Positions 696-54,247 of a stretch of DNA of 64,000 nt are shown here, in pieces; positions within the stretch are counted from its first letter, which is position 1; every line of letters starts with the position of its first letter. Position numbers and translations under genes: made by a program. The notes beneath the pieces are model-generated. The model was not told the origin of the DNA, did not search any database, and was given only the letters and a program-made list of their open reading frames with translations. The stretch is taken from positions 502,844 through 566,843 of the forward strand of contig OY762063.1 of assembly GCA_963665075.1 (NCBI GenBank), given 5' to 3'. Source of the stretch: Dehalococcoidia bacterium. GTDB lineage: Bacteria > Chloroflexota > Dehalococcoidia > Lucifugimonadales > GCA-2712585.

Positions 696-3007
696 GCCTG
701 GTCCGCCTCCTTCCAAATCTCCTCCAGCACCTTCCCCGGCGACATCGGCAAGCTCGTCATGCGGACGCCCACGGCGTCGTGAATGGCGTTCGCAATCGCC
801 GCCATCGGCGGAACAATCGGCACCTCGCCGACGCCTCGCACCCCGAAGGGATGTCCGGGATTCGGCACCTCCACAATCACCGTGTCGATCATCGGCAAGT
901 CCAACGACGTAGGCATCCGGTAGTCCAGGAACGTCGAATTCGTCATCCGCCCGCCCTCGTCGAAGAAATACTCCTCGTTCAGCGCCCAGCCGATTCCCTG
1001 CACCACGCCCCCCTGAATCTGCCCCTCCACGTAGCTCGGATGCACCGCCTTCCCCACGTCCTGCACCGCGGTGTACCGCAGAATCTCCACCTTCCCCGTC
1101 TCCGGGTCTACTTCCACGTCAACGATGTTGGCGGCGAAAGCCCCGCCCACGCCCCGCGGATCCACCGACGCCCGCCCCACAATCGGCCCGCCCGTGCCGT
1201 TCAGCATCCCCGCCAACTCCCTGAAGCTCATCCTCAATTCCGGGTCCTTGGCGTGAACCAGCGACCCGCCCCTCAACTCCACGTCCCCTGCGGACACGTC
1301 CCAAATCGTCGCCGCCCGCCCGATCATCTGCCGCTTGATGTCCTGCGCCGCCTCGTAGCACGCCCAGCCCGTCTTGAACGCCACGCTGCTCCCGCCCGTG
1401 CTCGACGTGTACCCGATGCTGTCCGTGTCCGCCACCTGCGGATGCACGTCCTCCACCGGAATCGTCAGCACCTCCGCCATGTGCATCGCCGCCACCACCC
1501 GCGTCCCTCCGATGTCCGGCGAACCCTCGACCAGGCTGACCGTGCCGTCGGAATTGACGCTGGCGAAGGCCGTCGAAGGCCCGGTGTTGTTCCGCCAGAA
1601 CCCCGTCGCCACACCTCTACCCCGGTTTGGCCCCGACAACGGCGCGGAATAGTGCGGATGCTCCTGCGCCGCCTTCAACGTCTCCAGATAGCCGATGCGC
1701 GGAAACGCTATGCCGCTGATCTGCCTCGTCCCCTCCTTGGCGGCGTTGCGACGCCGGAACTCCAGCGGGTCCATCCCCAGCTTCGTGCACAATTCGTCGA
1801 TGACCGTCTCCGCCGCGAAGGCCGCCGCCGGCGCCCCCGGCGCGCGGTACGCCGCCGTCTTCGGCTTGTTGACTACGACGTCGTAAGCCTCCACCCGCGC
1901 GTTCGGAAGGTTGTATGCGCCGAATATGCACTGGGATGCGCCGCCGATGGGCGCCCCCGGATACGCGCCGCCCTCGTATACGAGAAGCGCTTCCGCCGCC
2001 GTTATCTTCCCTTCCGCATCGGCGCCCATCTTTACCTTTATATAGCCCCCCGACGTTGGCCCCGTCCCCTCGAACACCTCCACCCGGTTCATCGTCATCT
2101 TCACCGGCTGCCCCGACTTTTTGGACAAGACTGCCACCACCGCTTCCAGATACGTACTCAACTTTCCCCCAAACCCGCCCCCAATCTCCAATGGAATCAC
2201 CTTCACCTGCGACACGGGAATGTCCAGAATCAACGCGGTGTTGTCCCGAATCGCGAAGTGCCCCTGCGAGCTGCACCAGATGGTCACCTCCCCGTCCCTG
2301 TTCCAAAGCGCCGTCGCGCTGTGCGGCTCGATGTATCCCTGATGCACCGTCGCCGTCCGATACTCCCGCTCCACCGTCACGTCCGCCTCAGCGAACCCTT
2401 CCGCCAAGTTGCCCTTCTCCAGCACGAAGTGATTGGAAACGTTCGACCCTTTCTCCCCATCCTCCTCCGAACGAAGTCCTCCCGGCTGAATCCCCGCGAA
2501 CGAAAACGTCTCCAGACGTTCGTGCAGCAGCGGCGAATCTTCCTCCATCGCCTCCACCACGTCCGTCACCTCCGGCAACACCTCGTACTCGACCCGAATC
2601 GCCGACAAAGCTTCCTCCGCCAGATGCGGGCTGTCCGCCGCCACCGCCGCCACCGCGTGCCCCTTGTACAGCGCCTTCTCCGCCGCCAGCACGTTGTTGC
2701 TCAGAAACTTCGGATTCGTCATCGCCCCTTCCCCCAAGTCCGCCGTCTCCCCCGAAGGCTGCGGAAAGTCGGCGGCGGTCGCCACGGCCTTCACCCCCGG
2801 AATAGCCAACGCCCCCGACGTGTCGATGGACTTTATCCGAGCGTGGGCGTGAGGACTCCGCAGCACGGCCCCGTGAAGCAGTCCCGGCAGATTCACGTCC
2901 GCGCCGTACTGCGCCCGCCCCGTAACCTTGTCCGTCCCGTCATGCCGGATAGGACGCGTCCCGACTACGTCATACTTCCCCGTCGCCAAAACCACGTTCG
3001 ATTCCAT
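692..3007 (-). CDS. Xanthine dehydrogenase / aldehyde oxidase / CO-dehydrogenase family molybdopterin-binding large subunit
   Basis: 771-aa ORF. The N-terminus (VGTRPIRHDGTDKVTGRAQYGADV...LHGAVLRSPHAHARIKSID) is typical of the a/b-hammerhead domain of Mo-hydroxylases. It overlaps the convergent upstream gene by 4 bp. Confidence 0.85.
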   Translation of the reverse strand: MESNVVLATGKYDVVGTRPIRHDGTDKVTGRAQYGADVNLPGLLHGAVLRSPHAHARIKSIDTSGALAIPGVKAVATAADFPQPSGETADLGEGAMTNPKFLSNNVLAAEKALYKGHAVAAVAADSPHLAEEALSAIRVEYEVLPEVTDVVEAMEEDSPLLHERLETFSFAGIQPGGLRSEEDGEKGSNVSNHFVLEKGNLAEGFAEADVTVEREYRTATVHQGYIEPHSATALWNRDGEVTIWCSSQGHFAIRDNTALILDIPVSQVKVIPLEIGGGFGGKLSTYLEAVVAVLSKKSGQPVKMTMNRVEVFEGTGPTSGGYIKVKMGADAEGKITAAEALLVYEGGAYPGAPIGGASQCIFGAYNLPNARVEAYDVVVNKPKTAAYRAPGAPAAAFAAETVIDELCTKLGMDPLEFRRRNAAKEGTRQISGIAFPRIGYLETLKAAQEHPHYSAPLSGPNRGRGVATGFWRNNTGPSTAFASVNSDGTVSLVEGSPDIGGTRVVAAMHMAEVLTIPVEDVHPQVADTDSIGYTSSTGGSSVAFKTGWACYEAAQDIKRQMIGRAATIWDVSAGDVELRGGSLVHAKDPELRMSFRELAGMLNGTGGPIVGRASVDPRGVGGAFAANIVDVEVDPETGKVEILRYTAVQDVGKAVHPSYVEGQIQGGVVQGIGWALNEEYFFDEGGRMTNSTFLDYRMPTSLDLPMIDTVIVEVPNPGHPFGVRGVGEVPIVPPMAAIANAIHDAVGVRMTSLPMSPGKVLEEIWKEADQA

Positions 3008-3065
3008 AACTCCACCTCCACTGCTTCAATTAACCTTCAAGGTGATTCTACCACAGCGCCACCCC

Positions 3066-3617
3066 CTACCCGTCCAACCCCCTCTGCATCCCCCGCAGAT
3101 ACCGAATATGCCCCAAATGCTGGCTCAACTCGCACAGCACGTGCCCGAACATCCGCCCGATTGTATACCCCTGCTGCCACGGATTCGCCCACGCCGGCGT
3201 CTCCGAAAGCTGCTCCGCCCTCAACCCCGCCATATACTCCAACGTCTGCGCCCGCACCTCCCGCCCGTACTCCCAAAGCTCCCCCACCGGCGGCGTGACG
3301 AAGGCCGCCAACTCCTCCTTGCCGTATCTCCATCCCGTACCCGCGTCCACCATCTCCCACTTCCGGTCCCACCCGCTCCGCTCGAAGAGGTCCGGCATCC
3401 CCTGGGCAAACCCGCTCAGCCAATGATCCTCCGCCCGTATCAGATGCCACAACGAGAACCCAATAGAATTCGCCTCGTCGCCGGGACGCCATTCCACCTC
3501 CTCCCTCGTCAGCCCCTCCAACGCCGCCTCCATGTCGGAATCAATCTCCAGCAAAGTCTCCGCCACCAGCTGCATCACGTCCATCTTGACCTCCTCGTCG
3601 CCGCCCAAAAGTGACAT
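3066..3617 (-). CDS. DinB-family (four-helix-bundle, DUF664-like) protein
   Basis: 183 aa. It has the pattern LTREEVEWRP...NSIGFSLWHLIRAEDHWL and a C-terminal HLGHIRYLRG, typical of the DinB/YfiT-like superfamily. Confidence 0.7.
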   Translation of the reverse strand: MSLLGGDEEVKMDVMQLVAETLLEIDSDMEAALEGLTREEVEWRPGDEANSIGFSLWHLIRAEDHWLSGFAQGMPDLFERSGWDRKWEMVDAGTGWRYGKEELAAFVTPPVGELWEYGREVRAQTLEYMAGLRAEQLSETPAWANPWQQGYTIGRMFGHVLCELSQHLGHIRYLRGMQRGLDG

Positions 3618-3681
3618 TTTGCGTCTTGTGCAAGTTTACCCTTGCACGTAACATTCTTCCATACGGACTCGGAGGCGCAGC

Positions 3682-5088
3682 ATGACCTCGATTGACTTGA
3701 CCGAAGCAACCATCGCCAACACAGCCAGGCTGATTCAAAACAATGAACTTTCCCCGGTGGAATTGACCGAAAAAACCCTCGAACGAATCGATACGATTGA
3801 CCACAAAATCGGCGCCTTCACCACCGTCACCGCCGACTACGCACTGACGAAAGCCCGCCAGTCCGAAAATGAAATCTCCAACTGCAACTACCGCGGCCCC
3901 CTCCACGGCATCCCCTACACCCTCAAAGACCTCATCGACACCGATGGCATCCGCACCACCTACGGATACTCCAGCCACCAGGACCACGTCCCCCGACGCA
4001 GCGCCGCCGTCCACCAACGCCTCGAACAAGCAGGCGCCGTCCTCGTCGGCAAGGTTGACTGCCACTTCCGACGCAACATCCCCGTTTCCTGCCGGAATCC
4101 GTGGGATTTGACCCGCTCTCCCGGCATCTCAAGCTCCGGCTCCGGCGCCTCCCTCGCCGCCTCCCTCTGCCTCGCCTCCATCGGCTCCGACACCGGCGGC
4201 TCCGTCCGCATCCCCGCCTCCTGGTCGGGCGTGGTCGGACTGCGCGCCACCCTCGGCCTCCTGAGCCGCCACAACGCCCTCGGCCCCTCCTGGTCCTTCG
4301 ACCAGCTTGGCCCCCTCTCCAAGACCGTCGAGGATGTGGCCCTAGTTTTCGGCGCCATAGCCGGATTCGACCCCAACGACCCCATCAGCATCAGGGGCCC
4401 CGTCCCGAATTACGCCTCCGGCCTTGCCGGAAATTTCCAGGGATTCCGCGTCGGCGTCCTTCAGGAATTTGTTTCCGCCAACTGCACCGAGGCGGTCGAG
4501 ACGGCAATTCACGAAGCGCTGTCAACCCTGGAAGACTTGGGCGCCCTGGTTCAAGACGTAGAAATTCCCCACTCGTCTGAATCCACCCGTGTCCTGACCG
4601 TCGTGTCGGAAGCGGAATCCGCCGTTGACTACCGCCAGGTCTTCCCCAAGCAGCGCCTCGACAACATCGACGACGACATTAAGGAATACCTGGAACGCGG
4701 CGATTCCTACACCATGACGGAATACCTGGACGCCCAGCGCATGGCCGCGGTACTGCGCCAGGAAGTTGCCAACGCCTTCGAGAAAGTGGACGTCATCGTC
4801 GCCCCCACCTGCCTGACCACCGCCGTCCCCATCTCCCAGGAGCGACAGCTGATCGACGTTCGCGGTGAACGGATCGACTACCTGGAGCTGCTGCTGAAAG
4901 TCACCTCCATCGCCAGCGTAACCGGACTCCCCGCCCTCTCCCTACCCTGCGGCTTCGACTCGAACGGCCTCCCCATCGGCATGCAGCTGATGGGCCCCGC
5001 ATTGTCGGAAGCGCGCCTCCTCCGCCTCGGCCACGCCTACCAACAAGCCACCCAATGGCACAACGCCCGCCCATCCCTCTCACCCTGA
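3682..5088 (+). CDS. Amidase (amidase-signature family, GatA-like)
   Basis: 468 aa. It carries the AS-family motifs GISSSGSGA and GSDTGGSVRIPASWSGVVGLRAT. Confidence 0.9.
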   Translation: MTSIDLTEATIANTARLIQNNELSPVELTEKTLERIDTIDHKIGAFTTVTADYALTKARQSENEISNCNYRGPLHGIPYTLKDLIDTDGIRTTYGYSSHQDHVPRRSAAVHQRLEQAGAVLVGKVDCHFRRNIPVSCRNPWDLTRSPGISSSGSGASLAASLCLASIGSDTGGSVRIPASWSGVVGLRATLGLLSRHNALGPSWSFDQLGPLSKTVEDVALVFGAIAGFDPNDPISIRGPVPNYASGLAGNFQGFRVGVLQEFVSANCTEAVETAIHEALSTLEDLGALVQDVEIPHSSESTRVLTVVSEAESAVDYRQVFPKQRLDNIDDDIKEYLERGDSYTMTEYLDAQRMAAVLRQEVANAFEKVDVIVAPTCLTTAVPISQERQLIDVRGERIDYLELLLKVTSIASVTGLPALSLPCGFDSNGLPIGMQLMGPALSEARLLRLGHAYQQATQWHNARPSLSP

Positions 5089-5152
5089 ACCCATCCCCTC
5101 TTCTCCCTTCCCCCTTAACGGAGACCTTTGAACAACCCTCCCAAGAGCACCA

Positions 5153-5324
5153 ATTAGCCTCTTCCCCCTCGACGAAGACCTTTGCATAACCGTCATTCCC
5201 GTGAAAACGGGAATCCAGGGGCGGGGCTGTTTAGGTACAAATACGCTACTTCTTTGACAGAATGTTGGGGTGTATAGGGAGTTACGCAAAGGTCTCCTTG
5301 ACGGGGGAAGATTGAGATGGGGGG
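5153..5324 (+). mobile_element. MITE-like ~170-bp element, copy 1. About 30-35 bp imperfect terminal inverted repeats enclose a family-A hairpin and a conserved core.
   Basis: The left end is ATTAGCCTCTTCCCCCTCGACGAAGACCTTTGCATAAC. The right end is GTTACGCAAAGGTCTCCTTGACGGGGGAAGATTGAGATGGGG, its imperfect reverse complement. It is collinear with 8061-8230 at a similar length and high identity by eye. Confidence 0.6.
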
Positions 5325-5580
5325 TGAAATCCCCCTCCCGCTCACCTTGAACCTACTCCACTCCCCCCGCTCACCCTGAGCCTGTCCTGAGCTTGTCGAA
5401 GGGCCTGTCGAAGGGTCGAGCGTCCCCCTCTTGCTCCCGCGAAAGCGGGAGCCCATCTTCCCCCGCTCACCCTGAGCTTGTCGAAGGGTACTCATCCCCT
5501 CAATCCCTCCGTAGGGGCGACCGGCCGGTCGCCCCTACCCTGTCGCGCCAAAATCCCATCGCGAACCCGCCCGACCCCTC

Positions 5581-5738
5581 CATCATTCCCGCCTACCTCC
5601 TTCGTCATTCCCGCCTACCTCCTTCGTCATTCCCGCCTACCTCCTTCGTCATTCCCGTCTACCTCCTTCGTCATTCCCGTCTACCTCCTTCGTCATTCCC
5701 GCCTACCTCCTTCGTCATTCCCGCGTAGGCGGGAATCC
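5581..5738 (+). repeat. Tandem array of six 22-bp half-hairpin units (CGTCATTCCCGCCTACCTCCTT) ending in one complete family-A hairpin (CGTCATTCCCGCGTAGGCGGGAATCC)
   Basis: Read directly. Unit starts fall at 5581, 5603, 5625, 5647, 5669 and 5691, and the terminal full hairpin is at 5713-5738. Confidence 0.9.
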
Positions 5739-5860
5739 ATCTTCTCCCCTCGCCGCTTGACTAGCAATTCCCGTTCAGATACTATCAACCACAATTGACA
5801 TAGAGTAGTGTTGGCTTACGCCAATCACACTACGATTTCGCTTTCCAAAAGGTGGTAGTT

Positions 5861-7987: not shown

Positions 7988-8060
7988 GCCGCCTATGGTA
8001 TCCTGAACCCGACAACCCAACACAATCGGATGCCGTTGCATAACCGCCGCAAGGGTTGCG

Positions 8061-8230
8061 ATTAACCTCTTCCCCCTTGATGGGGACCTTTGCATAACCC
8101 CCATTCCCGCGCAGGCGGGAATCCAGGGGTGGGCTGCTTAGGTATGAATTCGCTGCTTCTTTGACAGAATGCTCAGGCGAATAGGTAGTTACGCAAAGGT
8201 CTCCTTGATGGGGGAAGATTGAGATGGGGG
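8061..8230 (+). mobile_element. MITE-like ~170-bp element, copy 2
   Basis: It starts ATTAACCTCTTCCCCCTTGATGGGGACCTTTGCATAAC and ends GTTACGCAAAGGTCTCCTTGATGGGGGAAGATTGAGATGGGGG. It has the same architecture and internal core (GGCTG.TTAGGTA...CTTCTTTGACAGAATG) as 5153-5324. Confidence 0.6.
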
Positions 8231-8298
8231 TGACTCAAGTGGTATAGACGATGCATTTCGCGGTTACGCAGAAGTCTCAAAATCAGAGGAGGTTAGCA

Positions 8299-9375
8299 AT
8301 GAAGGTCCCCTACGGAGCCGTTGACGCCGACGGCCACATCAACGAACCCGAAACCAAGCTCATGGAATACCTGGAAGGCCCCTACGCCGACATCAAGAAC
8401 TTCCACAGCTACATCCCCGGCAGCGACGGCATAGTCGGCGGCAGCGTCGTCGCCGGCAAGGACTACATGGACTCCACCCTCGGCGGCCGCCTCGGCGCCC
8501 ACGGCGGCCCCGACTTCCCCACGCCCCAGGAGTGGCTCGACAACGCCGACGCCGGCGGCCTGGAGACCATCTTCGTCTTCCCCACAACCCTCCTCGGCTA
8601 CTCCCGCATCATCGACCCCGACTACCTCGTCGCCCTCACCAAATCCTACAACAACTACGTCTCCGAGGAGTGGCTCAAGTTCAGCCCCCGCTTCAAGTCC
8701 GTCGCCCTCATGCCCCTCATGGACGTGGACGAATCCATCAAGGAAATGCGCCGCTGCGTCACCGAATTGGGCTACAACGGCGTCTTCATCGCCGCCGTCG
8801 GATTCGGCCTCCTTGGCGAAAAGCGCCTCGACCCCTTCTACGAAGAAGCCGAAAAGCTCGGCACCTTCATCGCCGTCCACGGCGGCCACGCCACCGGCGA
8901 GTCCCAGAAGTACACCAAATTCATCCAGCGCCACACCATCGGCTTCCCCGTTTCCGCCATGATGCAGATGATGCACATGACCTACGAAGGCGTCTACGAA
9001 AAATTCCCCAACCTCAAAGTCGGATACCTGGAAGCCGGATGCACCTGGGTCCCCTACCTCCTCGACCGGATGGACGAGGAATGGGAGAAGCGGGGCTGGT
9101 TCGAGACCCCCAACTGCAAGAAGAAGCCCAGCGACTACATCAAGGGCGGCAACGTCTACATCCACGCCGAGCCCGGCGAGGAGTTGATCCCCGAAGTCAT
9201 CCGCGTCATGGGCCGGAACCGCCTCTTCTACGCCTCCGACTGGCCCCACTGGGACAACGAATACCCCGAAAGCCTCTACCACATCTACAACCGCGACGAC
9301 CTCACCGAAACCGACAAACGCGCCATCCTCCGCGACAACGCCGCCGAAATGTACGGCCTCCCCAACCCCCCCTAA
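8299..9375 (+). CDS. Amidohydrolase_2-family metal-dependent hydrolase/decarboxylase (ACMSD-like)
   Basis: It begins MKVPYGAVDADGHINEP, giving the D-x-H metal motif, and has ASDWPHWD near the C-terminus. The start at 8299 follows the SD AGAGGAGG. The ORF track starts earlier, at 8251. Confidence 0.85.
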   Translation: MKVPYGAVDADGHINEPETKLMEYLEGPYADIKNFHSYIPGSDGIVGGSVVAGKDYMDSTLGGRLGAHGGPDFPTPQEWLDNADAGGLETIFVFPTTLLGYSRIIDPDYLVALTKSYNNYVSEEWLKFSPRFKSVALMPLMDVDESIKEMRRCVTELGYNGVFIAAVGFGLLGEKRLDPFYEEAEKLGTFIAVHGGHATGESQKYTKFIQRHTIGFPVSAMMQMMHMTYEGVYEKFPNLKVGYLEAGCTWVPYLLDRMDEEWEKRGWFETPNCKKKPSDYIKGGNVYIHAEPGEELIPEVIRVMGRNRLFYASDWPHWDNEYPESLYHIYNRDDLTETDKRAILRDNAAEMYGLPNPP

Positions 9376-46498: not shown

Positions 46499-46541
46499 AC
46501 GATGATACCTACACAAACAATCCCTTCCCCCTCATCTCCCT

Positions 46542-47041
46542 CTCGTCATTCCCGCGCCGGCGGGAATCCACTCCCCTCTTATCCCTTCCCCCTCATACCC
46601 ATCTCGTCATTCCCGCGCCGGCGGGAATCCACTCCCCTCTTATCCCTTCCCCCTCATACCCATCTCGTCATTCCCGCGCCGGCGGGAATCCATCCCCTCT
46701 TATCCCTTCCCCCTCATACCCATCTCGTCATTCCCGCGCCGGCGGGAATCCATTCCCTCTTATCCCTTCCCCCTCATACCCACCTCGTCATTCCCGCGCC
46801 GGCGGGAATCCATCCCCTCTTATCCCTTCCCCCTCATACCCATCTCGTCATTCCCGCGCCGGCGGGAATCCATCCCCTCTTATCCCTTCCCCCTCATACC
46901 CGCCTCGTCATTCCCGCGCAGGCGGGAATCCATCCCCTCTTATCCCTTCCCCCTCATACCCGCCTCGTCATTCCCGCGCAGGCGGGAATCCATCCCCTCT
47001 TATCCCTTCCCCCTTGACGGGGGAAGGTTAGGATGGGGGTG
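46542..47041 (+). repeat. Tandem array of eight 60-61-bp units, each a complete family-A hairpin plus a constant 35-nt tail; ends in a family-C hairpin
   Basis: The unit is CTCGTCATTCCCGCGCCGGCGGGAATCCA(C/T)(T)CCCCTCTTATCCCTTCCCCCTCATACCCAT. Unit starts fall at 46542, 46603, 46664, 46724, 46784, 46844, 46904 and 46964. The last two units switch the hairpin loop from GCCG to GCAG. Confidence 0.92.
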
Positions 47042-47135
47042 ATCCCCGCGCCACACGACAATGGAACCAGCCTTCTGCAGGGGCAGGTTTGAAACCTGCC
47101 CCCGCACCCACAAACAAACCACCGGAGGACAAGAA

Positions 47136-48101
47136 ATGCCCGCAGAGCGCAAACCCGGATACGACATGCCCTACTACGACTGGTCGCCCCTGCCCGAGCG
47201 TCCGCCCCTCAAGTGGCCCAACAACGAACGGGTGGCCCTGTGCGTCATCCTCAGCATGGACCACTACCAGTGGAAACCCACCAACGACTTCACCAACGGC
47301 GGCATGCCCGGCTCCCAGCCCGACTGGGCCTACAAGGCCCCCGAAGCCCCCGGCGGCGTCAGCGGCGGCGGCCGCCCTTTCCCCGACGTCATCGGCTTCT
47401 CCATCCGGGAATACGGCCCCCGCGTCGGCATCTTCCGCGTCCTCAAAATCCTCGACAAGTACGGCATCACCCCCACCATCGCCCTCGACGCCCTCACCGC
47501 CGAGAACTACCCCTACGTCGTCCGCATCCTCAAGGAGCGCGGCTGCGAATTCATGGCCCACGGCGTCGCCGTCAACCAGATGCTCACCAGCAAGATGACC
47601 CCGGACCAGGAGCGCGACTACATCCGCCGCTCCCTCGACGCCGTGGAGAAGGCCACCGGCAGCAGGCCCCGCGGCTGGATGGGCGAGGAATTCGGCGAGT
47701 CCGCCGAGACCGCCGCCATCCTCGCCGACGAGGGACTCGATTACGTCTGCGACTGGCCCAACGACGACCAGCCCTACCCCATGAACACCCCCACCGGCGA
47801 CCTCTACTCCCTCCCCGTCAACCTCACCCTCGTCGACGTTCGCAGCCACTGGTACGGCCGCATCCACGTGGACGTTTACGCCAAGATGATTATGGACTCC
47901 TTCGACGTGGTATACCGCGAAGGCGCGCAAACGGGACGGATGCTGGTGTTGAACTTCCAACCCTGGCTCATGGGCACCGGCTTCCGCAGCAAATACCTCG
48001 ACCAGGCCCTCAGCCACATCGCCAAACACGGCGGCATCTGGAAAGCCTCCGCCGGCGAAATCGTCGACTACCACCGCTCCCTCGCGAAAACCACCACATA
48101 A
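47136..48101 (+). CDS. Polysaccharide deacetylase family protein (PuuE-like), divergent paralogue
   Basis: It begins MPAERKPGYDMPYYDWSPLPERPPLKWPNNERVALCVI and contains MAHG, CDWPNDDQP and NFQPWLMG. The start at 47136 follows the SD GGAGGA; the ORF track start 47061 lies in repeat sequence. Confidence 0.85.
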   Translation: MPAERKPGYDMPYYDWSPLPERPPLKWPNNERVALCVILSMDHYQWKPTNDFTNGGMPGSQPDWAYKAPEAPGGVSGGGRPFPDVIGFSIREYGPRVGIFRVLKILDKYGITPTIALDALTAENYPYVVRILKERGCEFMAHGVAVNQMLTSKMTPDQERDYIRRSLDAVEKATGSRPRGWMGEEFGESAETAAILADEGLDYVCDWPNDDQPYPMNTPTGDLYSLPVNLTLVDVRSHWYGRIHVDVYAKMIMDSFDVVYREGAQTGRMLVLNFQPWLMGTGFRSKYLDQALSHIAKHGGIWKASAGEIVDYHRSLAKTTT

Positions 48102-48339
48102 GAATGCTGGACCCCGCTCACCCTGAGCTTGTCGAAGGGTCGAGCGGAGTCCCCGCCTCCCATTTTTATTCCCGCGAAAGGAGACCCATGCATACCCGCC
48201 ATTCCCGCCACTCCCGCCGCCCCCTCTTTTTCCCGCGAAACCGGGAATCCATCCCCTCTTATCCCTTCCCCCTCGACGGGGGAAGGTTAGGATGGGGGTG
48301 AAATCCCCCTACCACCAACCTCCAACAAAGGAATCAACA

Positions 48340-49668
48340 ATGGAAGACTACCCCCCCGGCATAGCAGTACCCCCCCAGAGCTTCTACAAAGGCCTCGAAC
48401 GCCTCGAACCCGGCGGCTCCGTCCCCTTCGACCCCGACCGCATCAACGTCATCGAAGCTAAGTCCCTCATCGACGGCGCCGGCTCCCGCCCCATCGACCG
48501 GCCCGTAGTCATCACCAAGGGCCGCGAAATAACCGTCGTAGATCGCCAGAACCAGATAGCCCTCCCCGAAGGCCCCAACGTCCACCACTACAGCTTTCCC
48601 GACGGCTACCTCCTCCCCGGCCTCATCGACTCCCACACCCACCTCATGTTCGGCGTCGCGGGATCCAGCTACGAGGACGTTATCGACAACGACTCCGACG
48701 AAGTCATGCTCCTCCGCGCCGCCATGAACGCCATGATCCACCTCAAGGCCGGCGTCACCACCCTCCGCGAGAACGGCGCCCGCAACAAGGTCACCTTCAA
48801 TCTCCGCGAAGGCGCCCACCGCGGCTACGTCACCGCCCCGCGCCTCCTTCTCTGCGGTCGCCCCGTCACCGTCACCGGCGGCCACTTCTACTGGTGCAAC
48901 CAGCAGGCCGACGGCATCGAAGGCGTCCGCGCCGCCGTACGCGAGCTTGTCAAGGACGGCGCCGACCACATCAAAATCATGGCCTCCGGCGGCGGCACCG
49001 CCATCACCGACCTCCGCCGTCCCTCCTACACCGTCGAGGAGCTTCGCGCCATCGTCGACGAAGCCCACAACATGGGCAAGCCCACCACCGCCCACTGCCT
49101 CGCCACCGGCAGCATCGTCAACGCCCTCGACGCCGGCGTCGACATGATCGAACACGCCGGCTTCATCGAACCCGACGGCTCCTACAGGTTCGACCCCCGG
49201 GTGGCGGAGCGAATCGCCGAGCAGGGAACCTATGTAAGCCCCACCGTCCAGACCGGCTACCGCGGCATGGAAGCCCTCCTGAACAAGCAGGAACGGGAAG
49301 GCCTGACCCCCATAGAAGAAGAACGGCTGGAATGGACCAAGGCCAAGTGCGATAGCCAGATGGAATTCCTCGGCAAACTCTGGTCCGACTGGCAGATCCC
49401 CATAGTCTCAGGCACCGACGCCATCGCCGCCTTCGGCGACTACTGCATCGGCCTCGAAATCATGGCCGAGGCCGGCATGAGCAACATGGAAGTCATCCGC
49501 TCCTCCACCAGCCTCAACGCCCACGCCATCGGCGTCGGCGACTACGTCGGCTCCGTCCAGGTTGGCAAAGACGCCGACCTCATCGTCGTAGACAAAAACC
49601 CCCTCGAAGACATCAAAGCCCTCCGCACCATGAAAATGGTCATGCGCCTCGGCAAACGCATCCTCTAG
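48340..49668 (+). CDS. Amidohydrolase (metal-dependent hydrolase, imidazolonepropionase/Xaa-Pro-dipeptidase-like)
   Basis: It begins MEDYPPG and contains GLIDSHTHL (HxH), DHIKIMASGG, TAHC, IEHAG and GTDA. The start at 48340 is preferred; the ORF track start 48292 lies in repeat sequence. Confidence 0.85.
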   Translation: MEDYPPGIAVPPQSFYKGLERLEPGGSVPFDPDRINVIEAKSLIDGAGSRPIDRPVVITKGREITVVDRQNQIALPEGPNVHHYSFPDGYLLPGLIDSHTHLMFGVAGSSYEDVIDNDSDEVMLLRAAMNAMIHLKAGVTTLRENGARNKVTFNLREGAHRGYVTAPRLLLCGRPVTVTGGHFYWCNQQADGIEGVRAAVRELVKDGADHIKIMASGGGTAITDLRRPSYTVEELRAIVDEAHNMGKPTTAHCLATGSIVNALDAGVDMIEHAGFIEPDGSYRFDPRVAERIAEQGTYVSPTVQTGYRGMEALLNKQEREGLTPIEEERLEWTKAKCDSQMEFLGKLWSDWQIPIVSGTDAIAAFGDYCIGLEIMAEAGMSNMEVIRSSTSLNAHAIGVGDYVGSVQVGKDADLIVVDKNPLEDIKALRTMKMVMRLGKRIL

Positions 49669-49683
49669 GCCCATGAAACGCCA

Positions 49684-51726
49684 ATGTCCCTAACTTCCCA
49701 ACTAAGTAACTTCAATAGCGTTGTACGTCGGTTCATGCACACCCACTTTCCGAATGTCACAAAAATGGTCCGAGCCATCAACAAGGAACCTCACTACATA
49801 AGGCCAATTCTGCCCCCTGAAGGAGTTGAATTCCAAGACGGGGGATATGCTTTATCCAAGAATCCCCGAAGATATTGGGCTTACGTGCTGGGGGATATCG
49901 GTACAGCCTTGGACTACCGAATAAGATTCAACTTCCCCGAAATGAACATTAAGGAGACAATAGCGTATAGAGATTCATTGAGTAGAGAGAACCGCGTCAA
50001 ATCCAGGGCACACCGTAAATACAGATTTCGCTTCATAGGAACTGATTTCTTTAACGAAGTGGAAGAGTTCCTAGCCAGGACGCGTCCCGATCGGGGTTCA
50101 CTCATTCCAGAAGATGAGGATGTTCTTTGCCGATATTGCTACACAATGGGATTAATTGATTATGGATATCGAAATAGTTCTCCACATCAGAATATGGAAT
50201 GGTTCGATATTGACGTTAATGAACTCATAAGTAGACCTGCACAATGGATATCCGATGACATAGCAGCACAAAATACGCTATTCCGAAAATCCAAAAGAGA
50301 TTGGCTGAGTAAGCCTGCAACACTAAATCCGACTTTCACCGGAGGCGTAGACGTGGGTGGAGCGGATGCCGACCTGATAGTTGACGGATGTCTAATAGAT
50401 CTCAAATCCAGCCAGAAAAACCTTACGGGCAGACATCTTTACCAACTCATCGGATATTGTCTTCTTGATTACGAAGACGAACATGGAATTGATTCCCTTG
50501 CGATATATCGGACTAGGTATGGTGTAACCCACTGCTGGGCAGTTGAAGAAATGCTAGCCCTTTCTATGGACTTCCCTCAACCACTAAATGAGCTACGTGC
50601 CAAGTTTCGCAAAGTGTTTCAGGATGAGCTTCAATTATTGGAGGAATTCAAAACCACTCCTGATAAGTTCTCTTTCTTGGCTTCCAGCAATGGCCGCAAA
50701 TTCCTTGAACACGAATCTAGGGTTCGTTTACTTGCAAGTACTGAAAGTAATAAATTCTTGAAGAGTCCCGAAGGACGCCAATGGCTTATTTCGGATAACG
50801 GCAAGTTCTTCATGGCGACCATCCCGGGAAAGCGTTTCTTGTCTAGCGGCAATGGTAGGGATTTCCTCACCAGTCCATCTGGGCGTAAGTGGTTAAGCAC
50901 AGACGAAGGCAGATACTATCTGACAGGGAGAAAGGGGCGGGAATTCCTAAACAGCGGAAAAGGGCGCGTCTTCTTGGCTTCCGCCGCGGGTCGCGAATGG
51001 CTTTCAACAACAGCTGGCAGGAAATGGCTCGAATGTGACAAGGGTCGCTTATTTCTCACTCTTGCTGTTGGACGCAATTGGCTAACAACCAAATTTGGAC
51101 GAAAATGGTTAGTTACTCGCGCCGGCAAAATTTGGTTAACAAGTCCAGATGGTCAGGTATTTCTTATATCAAAGAATGGATGCAAATGGCTAGAAACCGC
51201 GGACGCAATAGATTGGCTTGCAAGCGCGGGCGCACGACGCTTCCTCACCAGTATCAACTGCCATAAATGGCTCGTCACTGAAGCTGGACAAAATTGGTTG
51301 GATACGCAAGGTGGGAGATCCTGGCTGGCTAGTTACAGGTCTTGGGCATTCTTGGGCAACAAACATGGAGAACAATGGCTGGAAACTATTGCCGGACGAG
51401 CTTGGATATATACTGACGATGCTAAGGATTGGTTATTTAGTGTTAGTGCCTGGGATTTTCTCATCACCCCCGCGGGTCGAGAGTGGCTAATCTCCGATGA
51501 AGGTAAAATCTTTTTGGCCGGGACAAAAGGCCACGAATTCTTGGAATACGGCAAGGGGCGTCTGTTCCTAACCCGCGCCGAAGGGCGCGAATGGCTGACA
51601 ACGGAAGATGGCCGGAAATGGTTGTCGAGCGACAAGTCACAGACATTCCTCAAACTTGCAGTCGGACGCGAATGGCTGGATACGGCTGCCGGAAAGGCAT
51701 GGCAGGCAAGCACACAGCAGGAATAA
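49684..51726 (+). CDS. Putative RecB/Cas4-like PD-(D/E)xK nuclease domain fused to a C-terminal tract of 38 nonapeptide repeats (novel architecture)
   Basis: 680 aa and AT-rich. The N-terminal region contains GGADADLIVDGCLIDLKSS (D...DxK) followed by HLYQLIGYCLL (QxxxY). From aa 329 onward there are 38 uninterrupted 9-residue units with consensus R-x-[WF]-L-x-[ST]-x-x-G. The start lies 15 bp after the preceding stop. Confidence 0.8.
   Translation: MSLTSQLSNFNSVVRRFMHTHFPNVTKMVRAINKEPHYIRPILPPEGVEFQDGGYALSKNPRRYWAYVLGDIGTALDYRIRFNFPEMNIKETIAYRDSLSRENRVKSRAHRKYRFRFIGTDFFNEVEEFLARTRPDRGSLIPEDEDVLCRYCYTMGLIDYGYRNSSPHQNMEWFDIDVNELISRPAQWISDDIAAQNTLFRKSKRDWLSKPATLNPTFTGGVDVGGADADLIVDGCLIDLKSSQKNLTGRHLYQLIGYCLLDYEDEHGIDSLAIYRTRYGVTHCWAVEEMLALSMDFPQPLNELRAKFRKVFQDELQLLEEFKTTPDKFSFLASSNGRKFLEHESRVRLLASTESNKFLKSPEGRQWLISDNGKFFMATIPGKRFLSSGNGRDFLTSPSGRKWLSTDEGRYYLTGRKGREFLNSGKGRVFLASAAGREWLSTTAGRKWLECDKGRLFLTLAVGRNWLTTKFGRKWLVTRAGKIWLTSPDGQVFLISKNGCKWLETADAIDWLASAGARRFLTSINCHKWLVTEAGQNWLDTQGGRSWLASYRSWAFLGNKHGEQWLETIAGRAWIYTDDAKDWLFSVSAWDFLITPAGREWLISDEGKIFLAGTKGHEFLEYGKGRLFLTRAEGREWLTTEDGRKWLSSDKSQTFLKLAVGREWLDTAAGKAWQASTQQE
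50668..51723 (+). repeat. Coding nonapeptide-repeat tract (38 full units plus one degenerate terminal unit) within CDS 49684-51726
   Basis: I parsed the translation into 9-mers (FSFLASSNG/RKFLEHESR/.../REWLDTAAG/KAWQASTQQE). An aromatic or Leu at position 3 and Leu/Met/Ile at position 4 occur in every full unit, and Gly at position 9 in most. There is no indel over about 350 aa. The DNA copies are diverged. Confidence 0.9.
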
Positions 51727-51801
51727 TCGAACTTCTCTAACCAAAACTCCCATGACTAACCGCCAAAACACTGATACAATTCCCTCAACATGGAGGCTGC
51801 C

Positions 51802-52071
51802 ATGATTGAATATGCCGCACTTTTAGACGGCGAAGAAGGCGCTTACGGCGTCGTATTCCCTGACATCCCCGGCGTCGGCGCAATGGGATACACCGTTGAC
51901 GATGCCCTTCTGAACGCGGAAGACTCCCTGCGCGACTACGCAATCGAAATGGAGAGGGATGGCACTAAGTTAGCTACCCCAAGCCCTTCTCATTCAATCG
52001 TAATTCCCGAAGGCAATCGACTGGTTTCAATATCCCTCCGATCGGCTAGCATCACAGTTCCGGGAGGCTAA
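51802..52071 (+). CDS. HicB-like (UPF0150) antitoxin-fold protein, with no adjacent HicA
   Basis: About 89 aa. It contains YGVVFPDIPGVGAMGYTVDDALLNAEDSLRDYAIEMERDG, typical of the HicB N-terminal domain. ATG 51802 follows GGAGG; the track start is 51790. Its 3' end contains the SD (GGGAGG) for the next gene, which starts 2 nt after the stop. Confidence 0.65.
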   Translation: MIEYAALLDGEEGAYGVVFPDIPGVGAMGYTVDDALLNAEDSLRDYAIEMERDGTKLATPSPSHSIVIPEGNRLVSISLRSASITVPGG

Positions 52072-52073
52072 AC

Positions 52074-52994
52074 GTGCTTGAACCCAACCGCTCCCCCTAC
52101 GCACCCATCATCGACCGCCCCGTCGTCCGCTGGCCCGGCAACGCCCGCGTCGCCCTCTGGGTCGCCCCCAACATCGAATTCAAAGACTTCATCCCCGAAC
52201 CCAACTACGGTCACGGCTTCTACCGCACCTCCTACGACCGCACCCCCATCCCCGACGTCATGACCTACGGCAGCCACGACTACGGCAACCGCGTCTGCTT
52301 CTGGCGCATGCTCGAAGTCTTCGACCACCACAACATAAAATGCACCGTCTCCCTCAACGAAGCCGTCCTGGACCTCTTCCCCGAAATCCGCGACGCCATG
52401 ATCAAGCGCGACTACGACTTCATGTCCCACGGCATCTTCAACAACCGCTACCTCAACCACCTATCCCTCGAAGAAGAGCGCGCCTTCTTCAAAGACTGCG
52501 TCGACTCCCTCTACAAATACACCGGCAAGCAACTCAAGGGAATGCTCACCCCCGGCGTCTCCCCCACCGCCAACACCCCCGACCTCATGGCCGAAGCCGG
52601 CCTCATCTACAACGCCGACTGGGGCCACGACGACCAGCCCTTCCCAATGAACGTCAAGTCCGGCCGCCTCGTCACCATGCCCTACAACCTCGACCTCAAC
52701 GACGGCACCTTCAACCGCTTCGGCTGCCCCCCCGACTACTGGGCCCAGTGCCTCAAAGACCAGTTCGACGTCATGTACGAAGAAGGCGCGCGCAACGCCA
52801 CCCAGATGTGCGTCTCCCTCCATCCCGCCCTCACCGGCCACCCCAGCCGCATCGACCACCTCAACGACGCCCTGGACTACATGCTCTCCCACGAAGGCGT
52901 CTGGCAAGCCACCGCCGACGAAATCGCCCAGCACTACATGGACAACTACTACGACCAAATGCTAACCCACCTAAACTCCCACCCCTACCACTAA
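52074..52994 (+). CDS. Polysaccharide deacetylase family protein (PuuE-like), paralogue B
   Basis: 306 aa with a GTG start. It is collinear with paralogue A from the first codon (MLEPNRSPYAPIIDRPVVRWPGNARVALWVAPN...). Confidence 0.85.
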   Translation: MLEPNRSPYAPIIDRPVVRWPGNARVALWVAPNIEFKDFIPEPNYGHGFYRTSYDRTPIPDVMTYGSHDYGNRVCFWRMLEVFDHHNIKCTVSLNEAVLDLFPEIRDAMIKRDYDFMSHGIFNNRYLNHLSLEEERAFFKDCVDSLYKYTGKQLKGMLTPGVSPTANTPDLMAEAGLIYNADWGHDDQPFPMNVKSGRLVTMPYNLDLNDGTFNRFGCPPDYWAQCLKDQFDVMYEEGARNATQMCVSLHPALTGHPSRIDHLNDALDYMLSHEGVWQATADEIAQHYMDNYYDQMLTHLNSHPYH

Positions 52995-53182: not shown

Positions 53183-53256
53183 TACCCTTGGGGAGACTCG
53201 AACTCCCGACCTTCACCGTGGCAAGATGATGCTCTACTCCACTGAGCTACAGGAGC
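53183..53256 (-). tRNA. tRNA-Gly (anticodon GCC)
   Basis: The reverse complement folds as GCTCCTG-TA-GCTC-AGTGGAGTA-GAGC-A-TCATC-TTGCCAC-GGTGA-AGGTC-GGGAG-TTCGAGT-CTCCC-CAAGGGT-A. The D, anticodon and T arms are good. The acceptor stem has one C.A mismatch and two G.U pairs. CCA is not encoded. Confidence 0.75.
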
Positions 53257-53353: not shown

Positions 53354-54247
53354 CTAAATCTCCGCAAAATAATTCTCGTCCAGCTTCTTGATGGCATAGG
53401 TCTGCTCAGTGATGACCCCCACGTCCCTGTCAATCATCAGCGCCGCCAATTCCTGCCCGTCTATCAGCAGAACCGTCTGGTTGCCCTGAGAAATCTTTTC
53501 AGCCGTCTCTTTCGCGGACGGAGTGAAATGCGACGTTGTGACGAAAACACCCTTTGCCGCTCCCCGCAACTGAAGACTACCGGAGAAGTTGCGAATCTCC
53601 ACAGAACCCACAGATTGCCGCCACCTCTTCGCCTGGACGTGAACCTTCTCCAGCCCCAACGCATCCTGGTTGATAATCACGTCAACCCCGTCGTCGCCGC
53701 TCCGCCCCACAACCTTGCCCTTGCCATAGCCAAGTCTTTCAAGCAACGTCAACGCCAAACGTTCAAAGCCGTCGGGAGACAGTTTAACCAAGCTGTCCAA
53801 TATCTCGCCCTCGAGATTCTCCCGAATGGCGCGATACCCATCCTCCATCTTCTTATCCGGATCTTCCTCAGATTCACTTTCGTCCGTAGATGGGGGAAGC
53901 GGCTGGACTACCCCGGTTCTCTTCTGCTTAATAAGTGCGTTCAAGATGCTAGGCCAGATTCGCCCACTGTTCGTTATAAGCAACTCCTTGCCTGCTGATG
54001 TTATTACGAATAAACCTCTTTTCGGACTATGCAGCAGCCCAGCTGTCTTCAGTTCATAGAGGGCGAAGCTAATCTTTGTCCCTAGCGTAGAAGCATTAGT
54101 GGATGTCCGTTCGTTTACGTCTTCATCAGTCAAACTTAGACGAGGAATTATCTCGTCTTTGAATTCTCGGTTAGTTACCGGCCCTGACTTGGACGCAGCA
54201 ATCTCCAATAGCGGTCGATTTAATTCACTTTGGCTTGGTACGACCAT
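53354..54247 (-). CDS. mrr: Mrr-type restriction endonuclease (Mrr_N winged-helix plus Mrr_cat PD-(D/E)xK domain)
   Basis: 297 aa. The catalytic region reads GRSGDDGVDVIINQD...KVHVQAKRW...GVFVTTSHFT, and the N-terminal region is a winged-helix-like Mrr_N. The gene is AT-richer. Confidence 0.85.
   Translation of the reverse strand: MVVPSQSELNRPLLEIAASKSGPVTNREFKDEIIPRLSLTDEDVNERTSTNASTLGTKISFALYELKTAGLLHSPKRGLFVITSAGKELLITNSGRIWPSILNALIKQKRTGVVQPLPPSTDESESEEDPDKKMEDGYRAIRENLEGEILDSLVKLSPDGFERLALTLLERLGYGKGKVVGRSGDDGVDVIINQDALGLEKVHVQAKRWRQSVGSVEIRNFSGSLQLRGAAKGVFVTTSHFTPSAKETAEKISQGNQTVLLIDGQELAALMIDRDVGVITEQTYAIKKLDENYFAEI

Follow-up and report, generated by a model that had tools for sequence, protein, structure and literature searches.

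RecB/Cas4-like nucleases share a core fold and a fixed order of motifs, in which an acidic residue comes first, (D/E)xK second and QxxxY, on the next helix, last. Alpha-solenoids such as PUF, armadillo and HEAT proteins stack units of 36-42 residues, each of two or three helices, into an elongated superhelix; RTX proteins (PF00353, HemolysinCabind) are built as beta-rolls from nine-residue units with the calcium motif GGxGxD; fungal NACHT receptors (NLR-like) place an effector or signalling domain before a long variable array; and canonical type II hicAB loci pair hicA with a downstream hicB. Here we describe a gene that can be compared with each of these, in a 64,000-nucleotide stretch of a Dehalococcoidia bacterium genome (Chloroflexota; GenBank assembly GCA_963665075.1, contig OY762063.1, positions 502,844 to 566,843), hereafter the window. 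The gene encodes a 680-aa protein in which a RecB/Cas4-like nuclease domain is fused to 39 in-register nonapeptide units, and it stands just upstream of a HicB-like gene, at a site where related genomes hold toxin genes. The explanation that we favor, and consider probable as a whole though well short of certain, is an acquired nuclease with a 39-unit alpha-solenoid tail that has taken a toxin slot and has a role in genetic conflict. We think that the most interesting result is the repeat itself, which belongs to a class found across kingdoms.

The gene and its parts are as follows, in window coordinates:

49684..51726 (+), nuclease and repeat-tail gene: ATG start, intact open reading frame (ORF), 680 aa

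49684..50667 (+), N-terminal domain (N-domain), aa 1-328: RecB/Cas4-like PD-(D/E)xK nuclease of an unannotated family, start peptide MSLTS

50356..50457 (+), catalytic core, aa 225-258: GGADAD (D228 and D230), then ID(239)LK(241), then Q(254)LIGY(258)

50668..51723 (+), repeat tract, aa 329-680: 39 in-register units of the form [RK]-x-[WF]-L-x-[ST]-x-x-G

The ORF lies where a first-pass annotation, made from the letters of the window alone, had placed it, and the picture given there of an AT-rich gene in a high-GC cluster agrees with our figures. Across the gene GC drops from 0.62-0.68 to 0.43-0.50, and GC at third codon positions (GC3) is 0.43 in the N-domain and 0.50 in the repeat as against 0.85-0.90 in the flanking genes; thus the gene is compositionally foreign, and within the explanation that we favor it would be an intact, horizontally acquired single gene. 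A frame artefact, or the antisense of another gene, was rejected, as the opposite strand has no long ORF and a second protein (P0182, below) confirms the fusion. Promoter and terminator scans gave matches at chance level only, and Rfam returned two tRNAs and no other match. Neither a signal peptide nor a C-terminal secretion signal was evident by eye on the 680-aa protein, which is probably cytoplasmic.

No Pfam or NCBIfam model matches aa 1-328. The PADLOC profile RTasPDDEXK (PDLC03797, filed under DRT) matches aa 197-313 against profile positions 110-220 of 226 (E 4.7e-13), and a second PADLOC match, to PDC-S61 (E 1e-4), is likewise to a single domain. In an alignment of 61 homologues (A1) the residues D77, R163, P216, F218, A227, D228, D230, K241, Q254, Y258 and R278 are invariant and residue 239 is D or E throughout; the homologues therefore carry both the triad D...(D/E)-x-K and the QxxxY motif, which together form the RecB-family signature D...(D/E)xK...QxxxY. 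An AlphaFold2 model built on the same alignment (pLDDT 89.9, pTM 0.89) has strands at 212-214, 231-233, 236-241, 271-276 and 281-286 with flanking helices, that is, a predicted restriction-endonuclease-like alpha/beta core, and it puts the catalytic-core residues on strands 231-233 and 236-241 and on helix 249-261. In a Foldseek search of this model against the PDB the top match was the Argonaute-associated Cas4-family protein ACE1 (9iac, probability 0.99), followed by further nucleases, namely Dna2 (5ean), AdnAB (6ppu), Cas4 (7mi4), lambda exonuclease (3sm4) and MGME1, with unrelated all-helical proteins ranking among them. We accept the N-domain as a RecB/Cas4-like PD-(D/E)xK nuclease at the superfamily level, with predicted activity, much as the first-pass annotation had read it from the letters. 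It does not look like a Cas4 protein proper: C152 is the sole cysteine among columns conserved in at least 90% of homologues, Pfam Cas_Cas4 gave no match, and a scan of the five flanking ORFs gave no match to a cas gene. The first three positions of the MSLTS N-terminus are conserved in at least 90% of the homologues in A1, and such a conserved start, which is uncommon in cytoplasmic enzymes, suggests a function for the N-terminus itself.

From aa 329 onward the protein consists of 39 consecutive nine-residue units with zero indels, and then a single Glu. Unit position 1 is R or K in 26 of the 39, and position 3 is aromatic in all but one (W 20, F 17, Y 1, with L in the other). Leu fills position 4 in 36 units, Ser or Thr fills position 6 in 30, and Gly fills position 9 in 29. 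A [WFY][LIMV] pair stands in one phase in 37 of the 39 units, whereas 20,000 shuffles of the 352 residues reached a maximum of 7 and a mean of 2.5. In the DNA, Tandem Repeats Finder reported no array in 49600-52100; the 27-nt units have a mean identity of 0.42, and at the conserved positions Leu is encoded by all six of its codons and Gly by all four. Because the DNA copies are so diverged, the register must be kept by selection at the protein level, and recent DNA slippage was rejected on the same ground, divergence of the copies at synonymous sites. The motif R-x-[WF]-L-x-[ST]-x-x-G, the freedom from indels and the inference of protein-level selection had all been put forward in the first-pass annotation and are borne out here. 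The tract is basic, with a net charge of +16 and a pI of 9.8.

That annotation had also called the architecture apparently undescribed. Our literature search likewise gave no account of the repeat, but the fusion is not unique, since it recurs in P0182, a complete ORF of 415 aa on a 1.6-kb contig from run SRR26713614. The P0182 N-domain belongs to the same subfamily (phmmer E 1.6e-48; BLASTP 31% identity, E 8e-71), sharing the motifs ILPPEG, LCRYCYT, PAQW..DIAAQN and YR.RYGV.H.W, and it is followed by a tail of about 11 nonamer units. Since P0182 carries the same fusion, the window gene is no assembly chimera, and the difference between about 11 and 39 units shows that repeat number varies. 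No other N-domain homologue carried the repeat, and the fusion thus amounts to 2 cases in 1.84 billion representative proteins. The P0182 tract is also basic (net +3, pI 9.1); among other tracts checked, 10 of 11 were acidic or near neutral, with P0002 basic (pI 10.1). Basic tracts are compatible with binding of either nucleic acid or an acidic partner.

The repeat has a far wider distribution than the fusion. A HMMER scan with aa 329-680 against the same representative proteins returned 496 with E<=1e-3, of which 99 had E<=1e-10. True W/F-L nonamer arrays account for at least 81 of the best 150 matches, and the rest include genuine RTX proteins (about 60), which match the tract at 22-30% identity. 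Compared by phmmer with 20 other class members, the tract gave E-values of 1e-76 to 1e-30. The 39 units show the features that define the class (an aromatic residue and Leu/Ile at positions 3-4, Ser/Thr at 6, Gly at 9, in many units), for which the consensus is x-x-[WF]-[LI]-x-[ST]-x-x-G; in-register homologous units (alignment A2) include GREWLQTPG, PAGQDWLLS, HAWLQTPEG, ENGLQWINS and DLFLEASTG. Fungal carriers are Suillus and Rhizopogon proteins with C-terminal arrays (P0065, P0002, P0068 and P0083), and a NACHT/NPHP3_N NTPase precedes the array in P0065 and in two further class members. Bacterial carriers comprise secreted S8 peptidases, one of them named as Candidatus Schekmanbacteria, and giant surface proteins of the LRR/InlB type from Bifidobacterium of the bee gut. 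Many others are AT-rich, unnamed and similar in look to giant-virus or protist genes; one of these is P0020, whose gene adjoins genes for a Peptidase_C54 and a DUF5847 protein.

This repeat has no Pfam or NCBIfam model, searches of Pfam, NCBIfam and PHROGs gave only sub-threshold noise or weak RTX similarity, a PDB sequence search with the 680-aa protein found nothing meaningful, and we found no description of a W/F-L nonapeptide motif in the published literature. The W/F-L nonapeptide is a widespread, cross-kingdom repeat class that appears to be undescribed. The first-pass annotation could fit it to no known class; the repeat is indeed unnamed and lacks a Pfam or NCBIfam model, but it is not a one-off and has weak in-register similarity to RTX. 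In a tblastn search of phages the tract matched two, Salmonella phage SEN22 and Edwardsiella phage GF-2. The match in GF-2 (L094, 2501-3088) was rejected as a periodicity artefact, being antisense to a collagen-like (G-X-Y)n gene, and it shows that a 9-nt periodicity alone can give spurious repeat matches.

For the fold of the tract, AlphaFold2 was given an in-register alignment of 26 rows. In its prediction each unit forms a single helix of about seven residues and two-residue linkers join the helices, with a mean pLDDT of 75.8 that rises to 83-91 at tract residues 30-180, where the alignment is deepest. The predicted helix spans unit positions 7-8-9-1-2-3-4. Homologous units often have Pro at position 7, right after the Ser/Thr (TPxG, SPxG), as is characteristic of helix starts; Ser/Thr6 would be the helix N-cap and Pro7 the first helical residue. 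Gly9, Trp/Phe3 and Leu4 (i, i+3, i+4) would then share one helical face, and with its conserved residues on one face the tract is predicted to stack as a long alpha-solenoid of mini-helices. The regular solenoid foreseen in the first-pass annotation is thus what the model gives, with alpha-helical units rather than a beta-roll or beta-solenoid. A Foldseek search of the tract model against the PDB had no match at E<=1e-3 (best PUF-3, E 0.048, TM 0.32; the rest of armadillo/HEAT type), and the best match in BFVD was an uncharacterized Bodo saltans virus protein (E 0.036).

Judged by sequence searches, the nuclease family is large and usually stand-alone, at about 300 aa. The first protein search gave about 60 homologues, covering the N-domain only; a search with a two-sequence profile gave 269 at E<=1e-10, mostly of 300-350 aa; and a scan of species-representative genomes gave 295 relatives, among which 80 loci, mainly of Chloroflexota (many of them Dehalococcoidia) and Actinomycetota, were kept for locus counts. 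A scan of viral contigs found only 2 N-domain loci, and metagenome contigs scanned with the full protein and with alignment A4 yielded no relative. The closest relatives (P0215-P0223, 45-47% identity) are stand-alone proteins of about 308 aa, and the 2.7-Mb contig that encodes the 680-aa protein also encodes a stand-alone paralogue, P0262. Actinomycetes carry fusions of the N-domain to a UvrD-type helicase (18 of the 80 loci), also on Streptomyces plasmids; further C-terminal additions in the family are HTH, Myb, TPR and LRV/HEAT domains, and one relative is fused to a 5'-3' exonuclease. Linear replicons of Streptomyces have a terminal helicase-like gene (ttrA) near their telomeres. The helicase fusions on Streptomyces plasmids (hits H3-H12) often lie within a few kb of record ends, for example at 2935-3825 of NZ_CP102510.1, 2749-3636 of NZ_CP109380.1 and 87054-87947 of the 90356 positions of NZ_CP109002.1.

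The genomic setting of the 680-aa gene was worked out from three orthologous loci (L091, L092 and L093), chosen by their amidohydrolase orthologues of 88-95% identity. The features concerned, in window coordinates unless a locus is named, are:

51802..52071 (+), HicB-like gene, 89 aa: PF15919, N-terminal HicB domain only, without the DNA-binding tail

49678..51801 (no strand), segment without counterpart in the orthologous loci (blastn against L092 and L093): the 680-aa gene together with the 75-bp spacer that follows it

48292..49668 (+), upstream backbone: amidohydrolase (Pfam Amidohydro_1, E 1e-43), ending 15 bases before the 680-aa gene

52074..52994 (+), downstream backbone: polysaccharide-deacetylase family (Pfam Polysacc_deac_1), with a GTG start 2 bases after the hicB-like stop

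L091, 7471-8022, slot: hicA (51 aa) and full-length hicB (128 aa)

L092, 3036-3224, slot: hicA missed by the source gene caller (PF07927, E 2.7e-12), upstream of an 89-aa hicB

L093, 2521-3067, slot: higB (PF05015, E 6.5e-15) and an HTH antitoxin (higA), upstream of an 82-aa hicB

A HicB-like gene without HicA, some 75 bp downstream, had been noticed at first pass, and each element of that description agrees with our findings. Its start, ATG at 51802, was set by orthologue alignment and lies 75 bp past the stop of the 680-aa gene; HicB_lk_antitox (PF15919) matches at E 1.1-1.2e-8, with 35.7 bits against a cut-off of 27, over profile positions 7-60 of 123; PHROG 497 matches as well (E 1.4e-12); and no HicA is encoded in the slot or in the rest of the 64-kb window. 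The 89-aa protein is acidic (net charge -9, pI 4.1) and lacks the C-terminal DNA-binding domain of HicB, whereas its 128-aa homologue in L091 covers profile positions 1-123. Such truncation, to 82-89 aa, is found in three of the four genomes. The GGAGG ribosome-binding site of the downstream deacetylase lies inside the hicB-like 3' end.

All three loci and the window share the backbone order deacetylase, amidohydrolase, slot, deacetylase, Mrr, DUF1800. By blastn, homology with L092 and L093 ends at window positions 49677 and 49679, respectively, and resumes at 51802 and 51800, that is, at the hicB start, so that hicB is what stays constant at the site while the gene preceding it varies. The first-pass annotation had the nuclease and HicB-like genes inserted together as a pair. 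This does not hold, as L091-L093 have hicB at the same site without the 680-aa gene, and the comparison of loci points instead to one gene, placed where toxin genes stand in a variable slot anchored by hicB. The slot is one for toxin-antitoxin genes, and the 680-aa gene has its toxin position, ahead of a hicB that is retained in truncated form. In all pairs hicB is under purifying selection (dN/dS 0.08-0.20). Its alleles have diverged much further than the backbone has (nucleotide identity 0.57-0.80 as against 0.82-0.97 from 52081 onward; dS above 1.2 as against 0.3-0.7 for the amidohydrolase), and whole cassettes that include hicB may therefore be exchanged. GC3 is 0.47-0.64 in the cassette genes of all four genomes, so composition does not discriminate among them.

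Some neighbors of the slot are of interest in their own right. A gene for a Mrr-type restriction endonuclease (Mrr_N and Mrr_cat; 53354-54247, minus strand; GC3 0.59) lies 1.3 kb from the slot and adjoins a tRNA-Gly gene (53183-53256, minus strand); its L091 orthologue has 69% DNA identity as against 85-88% in the flanks, and it is a second fast-evolving conflict gene near the slot. Paralogous polysaccharide-deacetylase genes flank the amidohydrolase in the window (47061-48101 and 52074-52994), and L091 has three (within 3889-5819, and at 8056-8976). The downstream deacetylase of the window has 81% DNA identity to a further L091 paralogue, upstream of the amidohydrolase, and these paralogues could promote recombination at the slot.

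Under the explanation that we favor, the nuclease domain would cut DNA. The basic solenoid tail would be an arm that binds or recognizes either nucleic acid or a partner protein and thereby targets the nuclease or gates it. In the fungal NACHT receptors this repeat holds the C-terminal sensor position. The setting would most likely be genetic conflict, with the protein acting as a toxin-like or defense nuclease; such a role is plausible and our best guess, drawn from context and analogy.

Several observations weigh against this account. The helical fold comes from a single AlphaFold2 run on an alignment of 26 rows, much of it thin, and the tract model has a pTM of 0.58, with pLDDT falling to 48-52 around tract residues 220-260. 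The nuclease model has weak Foldseek E-values (best 3e-3, TM about 0.3), owing to a family-specific helical region of about 200 N-terminal residues, and a profile search of PDB sequences with the N-domain found no solved relative. P0182 has an altered GGADAD and lacks the tyrosine of QxxxY, which suggests that catalysis may not be essential to the fusion. Neighbor clustering found no conserved gene around the 80 relatives (best 6 of 80). As to defense, which the first-pass annotation had raised, the domain profile RTasPDDEXK was matched but a full set of system components was not: PADLOC-DB 2.0 gave no defense-system signature beyond single-domain matches, no reverse transcriptase family was matched in the five flanking ORFs scanned, and the neighbors, apart from hicB and Mrr, are metabolic genes. 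HMMER also aligns the tract in register with the RTX blocks of CyaA and hemolysin, and P0068 (66.9 bits), P0097, P0083 and P0065 pass the Pfam whole-sequence score for HemolysinCabind.

These last two points belong to the alternative that the tract is a calcium-independent beta-roll or beta-solenoid, either RTX-derived or convergent, and not an alpha-solenoid, which we consider rather unlikely. Tract and RTX have the period of nine in common; in the HMMER register tract Gly9 pairs with RTX Gly4 and tract Leu4 with RTX position 8; and the true RTX proteins among the best 150 matches are numerous, as noted above. The GEGG-type units of P0097 (NNWLIGEGG alternating with KTWLRSADG, aa 257-409) look intermediate to RTX. 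The NCBIfam model RTX_toxin matches the 680-aa protein with E 6e-8, at a score of 31 bits that falls far below the cut-off of 1000, and HemolysinCabind does not match it even at E<=1. No RTX stretch is individually significant in any class member, the whole-sequence scores above the Pfam threshold being sums over weak stretches. The calcium motif GGxGxD is absent, there being one Gly per unit and D/E at the position of the RTX Asp in 10 of the 39 units, and the pattern G.G.D occurs once in the whole 680-aa protein. AlphaFold2 gives helices and no strands, with fair confidence. The two conserved hydrophobic residues follow each other directly (i, i+1) and do not alternate, and Ser/Thr-Pro, followed by Gly three residues ahead of Trp-Leu, would suit a helix better than a strand. 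A protein that is probably cytoplasmic, given the lack of an evident secretion signal, would also find little free calcium.

We consider it improbable that the two genes form a toxin-antitoxin or abortive-infection module, in which the nuclease-repeat toxin has replaced HicA and is neutralized by the acidic HicB-like protein, for example via its basic tail. The 680-aa gene does stand exactly where the toxin genes do, on the strand of hicB and 75 bp ahead of it, in a slot that holds toxins in relatives (HicA in L091 and L092, HigB in L093), and the charges of tail and HicB-like protein (+16 and -9) are complementary. Purifying selection on hicB even where hicA is missing, and alleles diverged enough for whole-cassette exchange, fit such a module as well. 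Yet hicB is present at the site whatever lies upstream, so the adjacency needs no functional link, and in L093 it sits beside a complete, self-sufficient higBA, showing that it can persist without a cognate upstream toxin. The HicB-like protein also lacks the DNA-binding tail seen in L091. Conservation of the HicB neighbor, which would have spoken for a module, was not found: tblastn detected HicB at none of the 80 N-domain loci but for one weak match 2.6 kb off (a single-sequence query that could miss distant genes), and the contigs of the four closest relatives inspected have none, their small convergent gene not being HicB-like.

That the protein is instead a housekeeping-type nuclease of DNA repair or recombination, its tail a mere scaffold or oligomerization rod and the position of hicB accidental, draws on the helicase fusions of actinomycetes, with their layout like RecB/AddA, on the relative fused to a 5'-3' exonuclease and on the stand-alone paralogue P0262, but is quite unlikely in view of the strongly foreign composition, the absence of the gene from the site in the closest related genomes, the extreme rarity of the fusion, the toxin genes that otherwise hold the slot and the Mrr-type restriction gene nearby.

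If the preferred explanation, a conflict nuclease with an alpha-solenoid tail in a toxin slot, is extended to the whole repeat class, then the W/F-L nonapeptides would be an unrecognized cross-kingdom class of recognition domain, built as an alpha-solenoid with a unit far shorter than those of the PDB alpha-solenoids matched. It would serve as the sensor arm of NACHT proteins in fungi and, here, as part of an NTPase-free sensor-effector in the toxin position of hicAB, possibly checked by HicB. To this extended view, taken whole, we give only a small chance. If the predicted fold is true, it would represent a new type of alpha-solenoid made from single mini-helices, of use both in annotating hundreds of proteins and as a design scaffold. 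The 680-aa gene and P0182 join the repeat to an enzyme with a readable activity and so offer a handle on what the repeat binds. Automated annotation may mislabel as calcium-binding RTX proteins those W-L nonamer proteins that look intermediate to RTX or pass the HemolysinCabind score. The slot is a natural cassette-swap experiment, with hicA, higBA or the 680-aa gene upstream of a conserved hicB, and it bears on how toxin-antitoxin and defense genes get replaced.

Elsewhere in the window, 46520-47014 consists of 8.2 copies of a 60-bp unit, 97% identical to one another. Within it is a hairpin, TCCCGCG-N4-CGGGAATCC, of which the window has 30 copies against 0.02 expected, 29 of them on the plus strand, with dispersed sites at, for example, 5197, 17684, 48231, 55847 and 62725; it looks like a dispersed palindromic element of the REP type.

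Set against the described systems, the N-domain shares the predicted core fold and the motif order of RecB/Cas4-like nucleases. It differs in lacking a four-cysteine iron-sulfur cluster and in having about 200 residues of N-terminal helices with their own invariants (D77, R79, R81, R150, C152, E159 and R163), and no sequence-profile link leads from it to a solved structure or a Pfam family. Its likeness to PADLOC RTasPDDEXK covers the catalytic half of the domain and is a match at domain level only. With PUF, armadillo and HEAT proteins, the sole and weak PDB matches of the tract, the likeness lies in the predicted stacking of helices into an elongated superhelix, whereas the unit here has nine residues and a single helix of about seven. 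With RTX the tract has in common the nine-residue period and one Gly and one aliphatic residue in the same register; it differs in having Trp/Phe and Ser/Thr instead of GGxGxD and the conserved Asp, and in being predicted alpha-helical rather than a beta-roll. Like hicAB loci, the window has a HicB N-terminal domain downstream, and the orthologous loci L091 and L092 carry canonical hicA-hicB at the very same site; in the window hicA is replaced by the 680-aa gene, and HicB is without the DNA-binding C-terminal domain that L091 retains. A search of the 680-aa protein for the Pfam NTPase domains of STAND/NLR proteins gave no NACHT or NB-ARC match. Fungal NACHT receptors nonetheless carry the same repeat class in their C-terminal arrays, and the window protein, which has no NTPase domain, joins its effector straight to the repeats.

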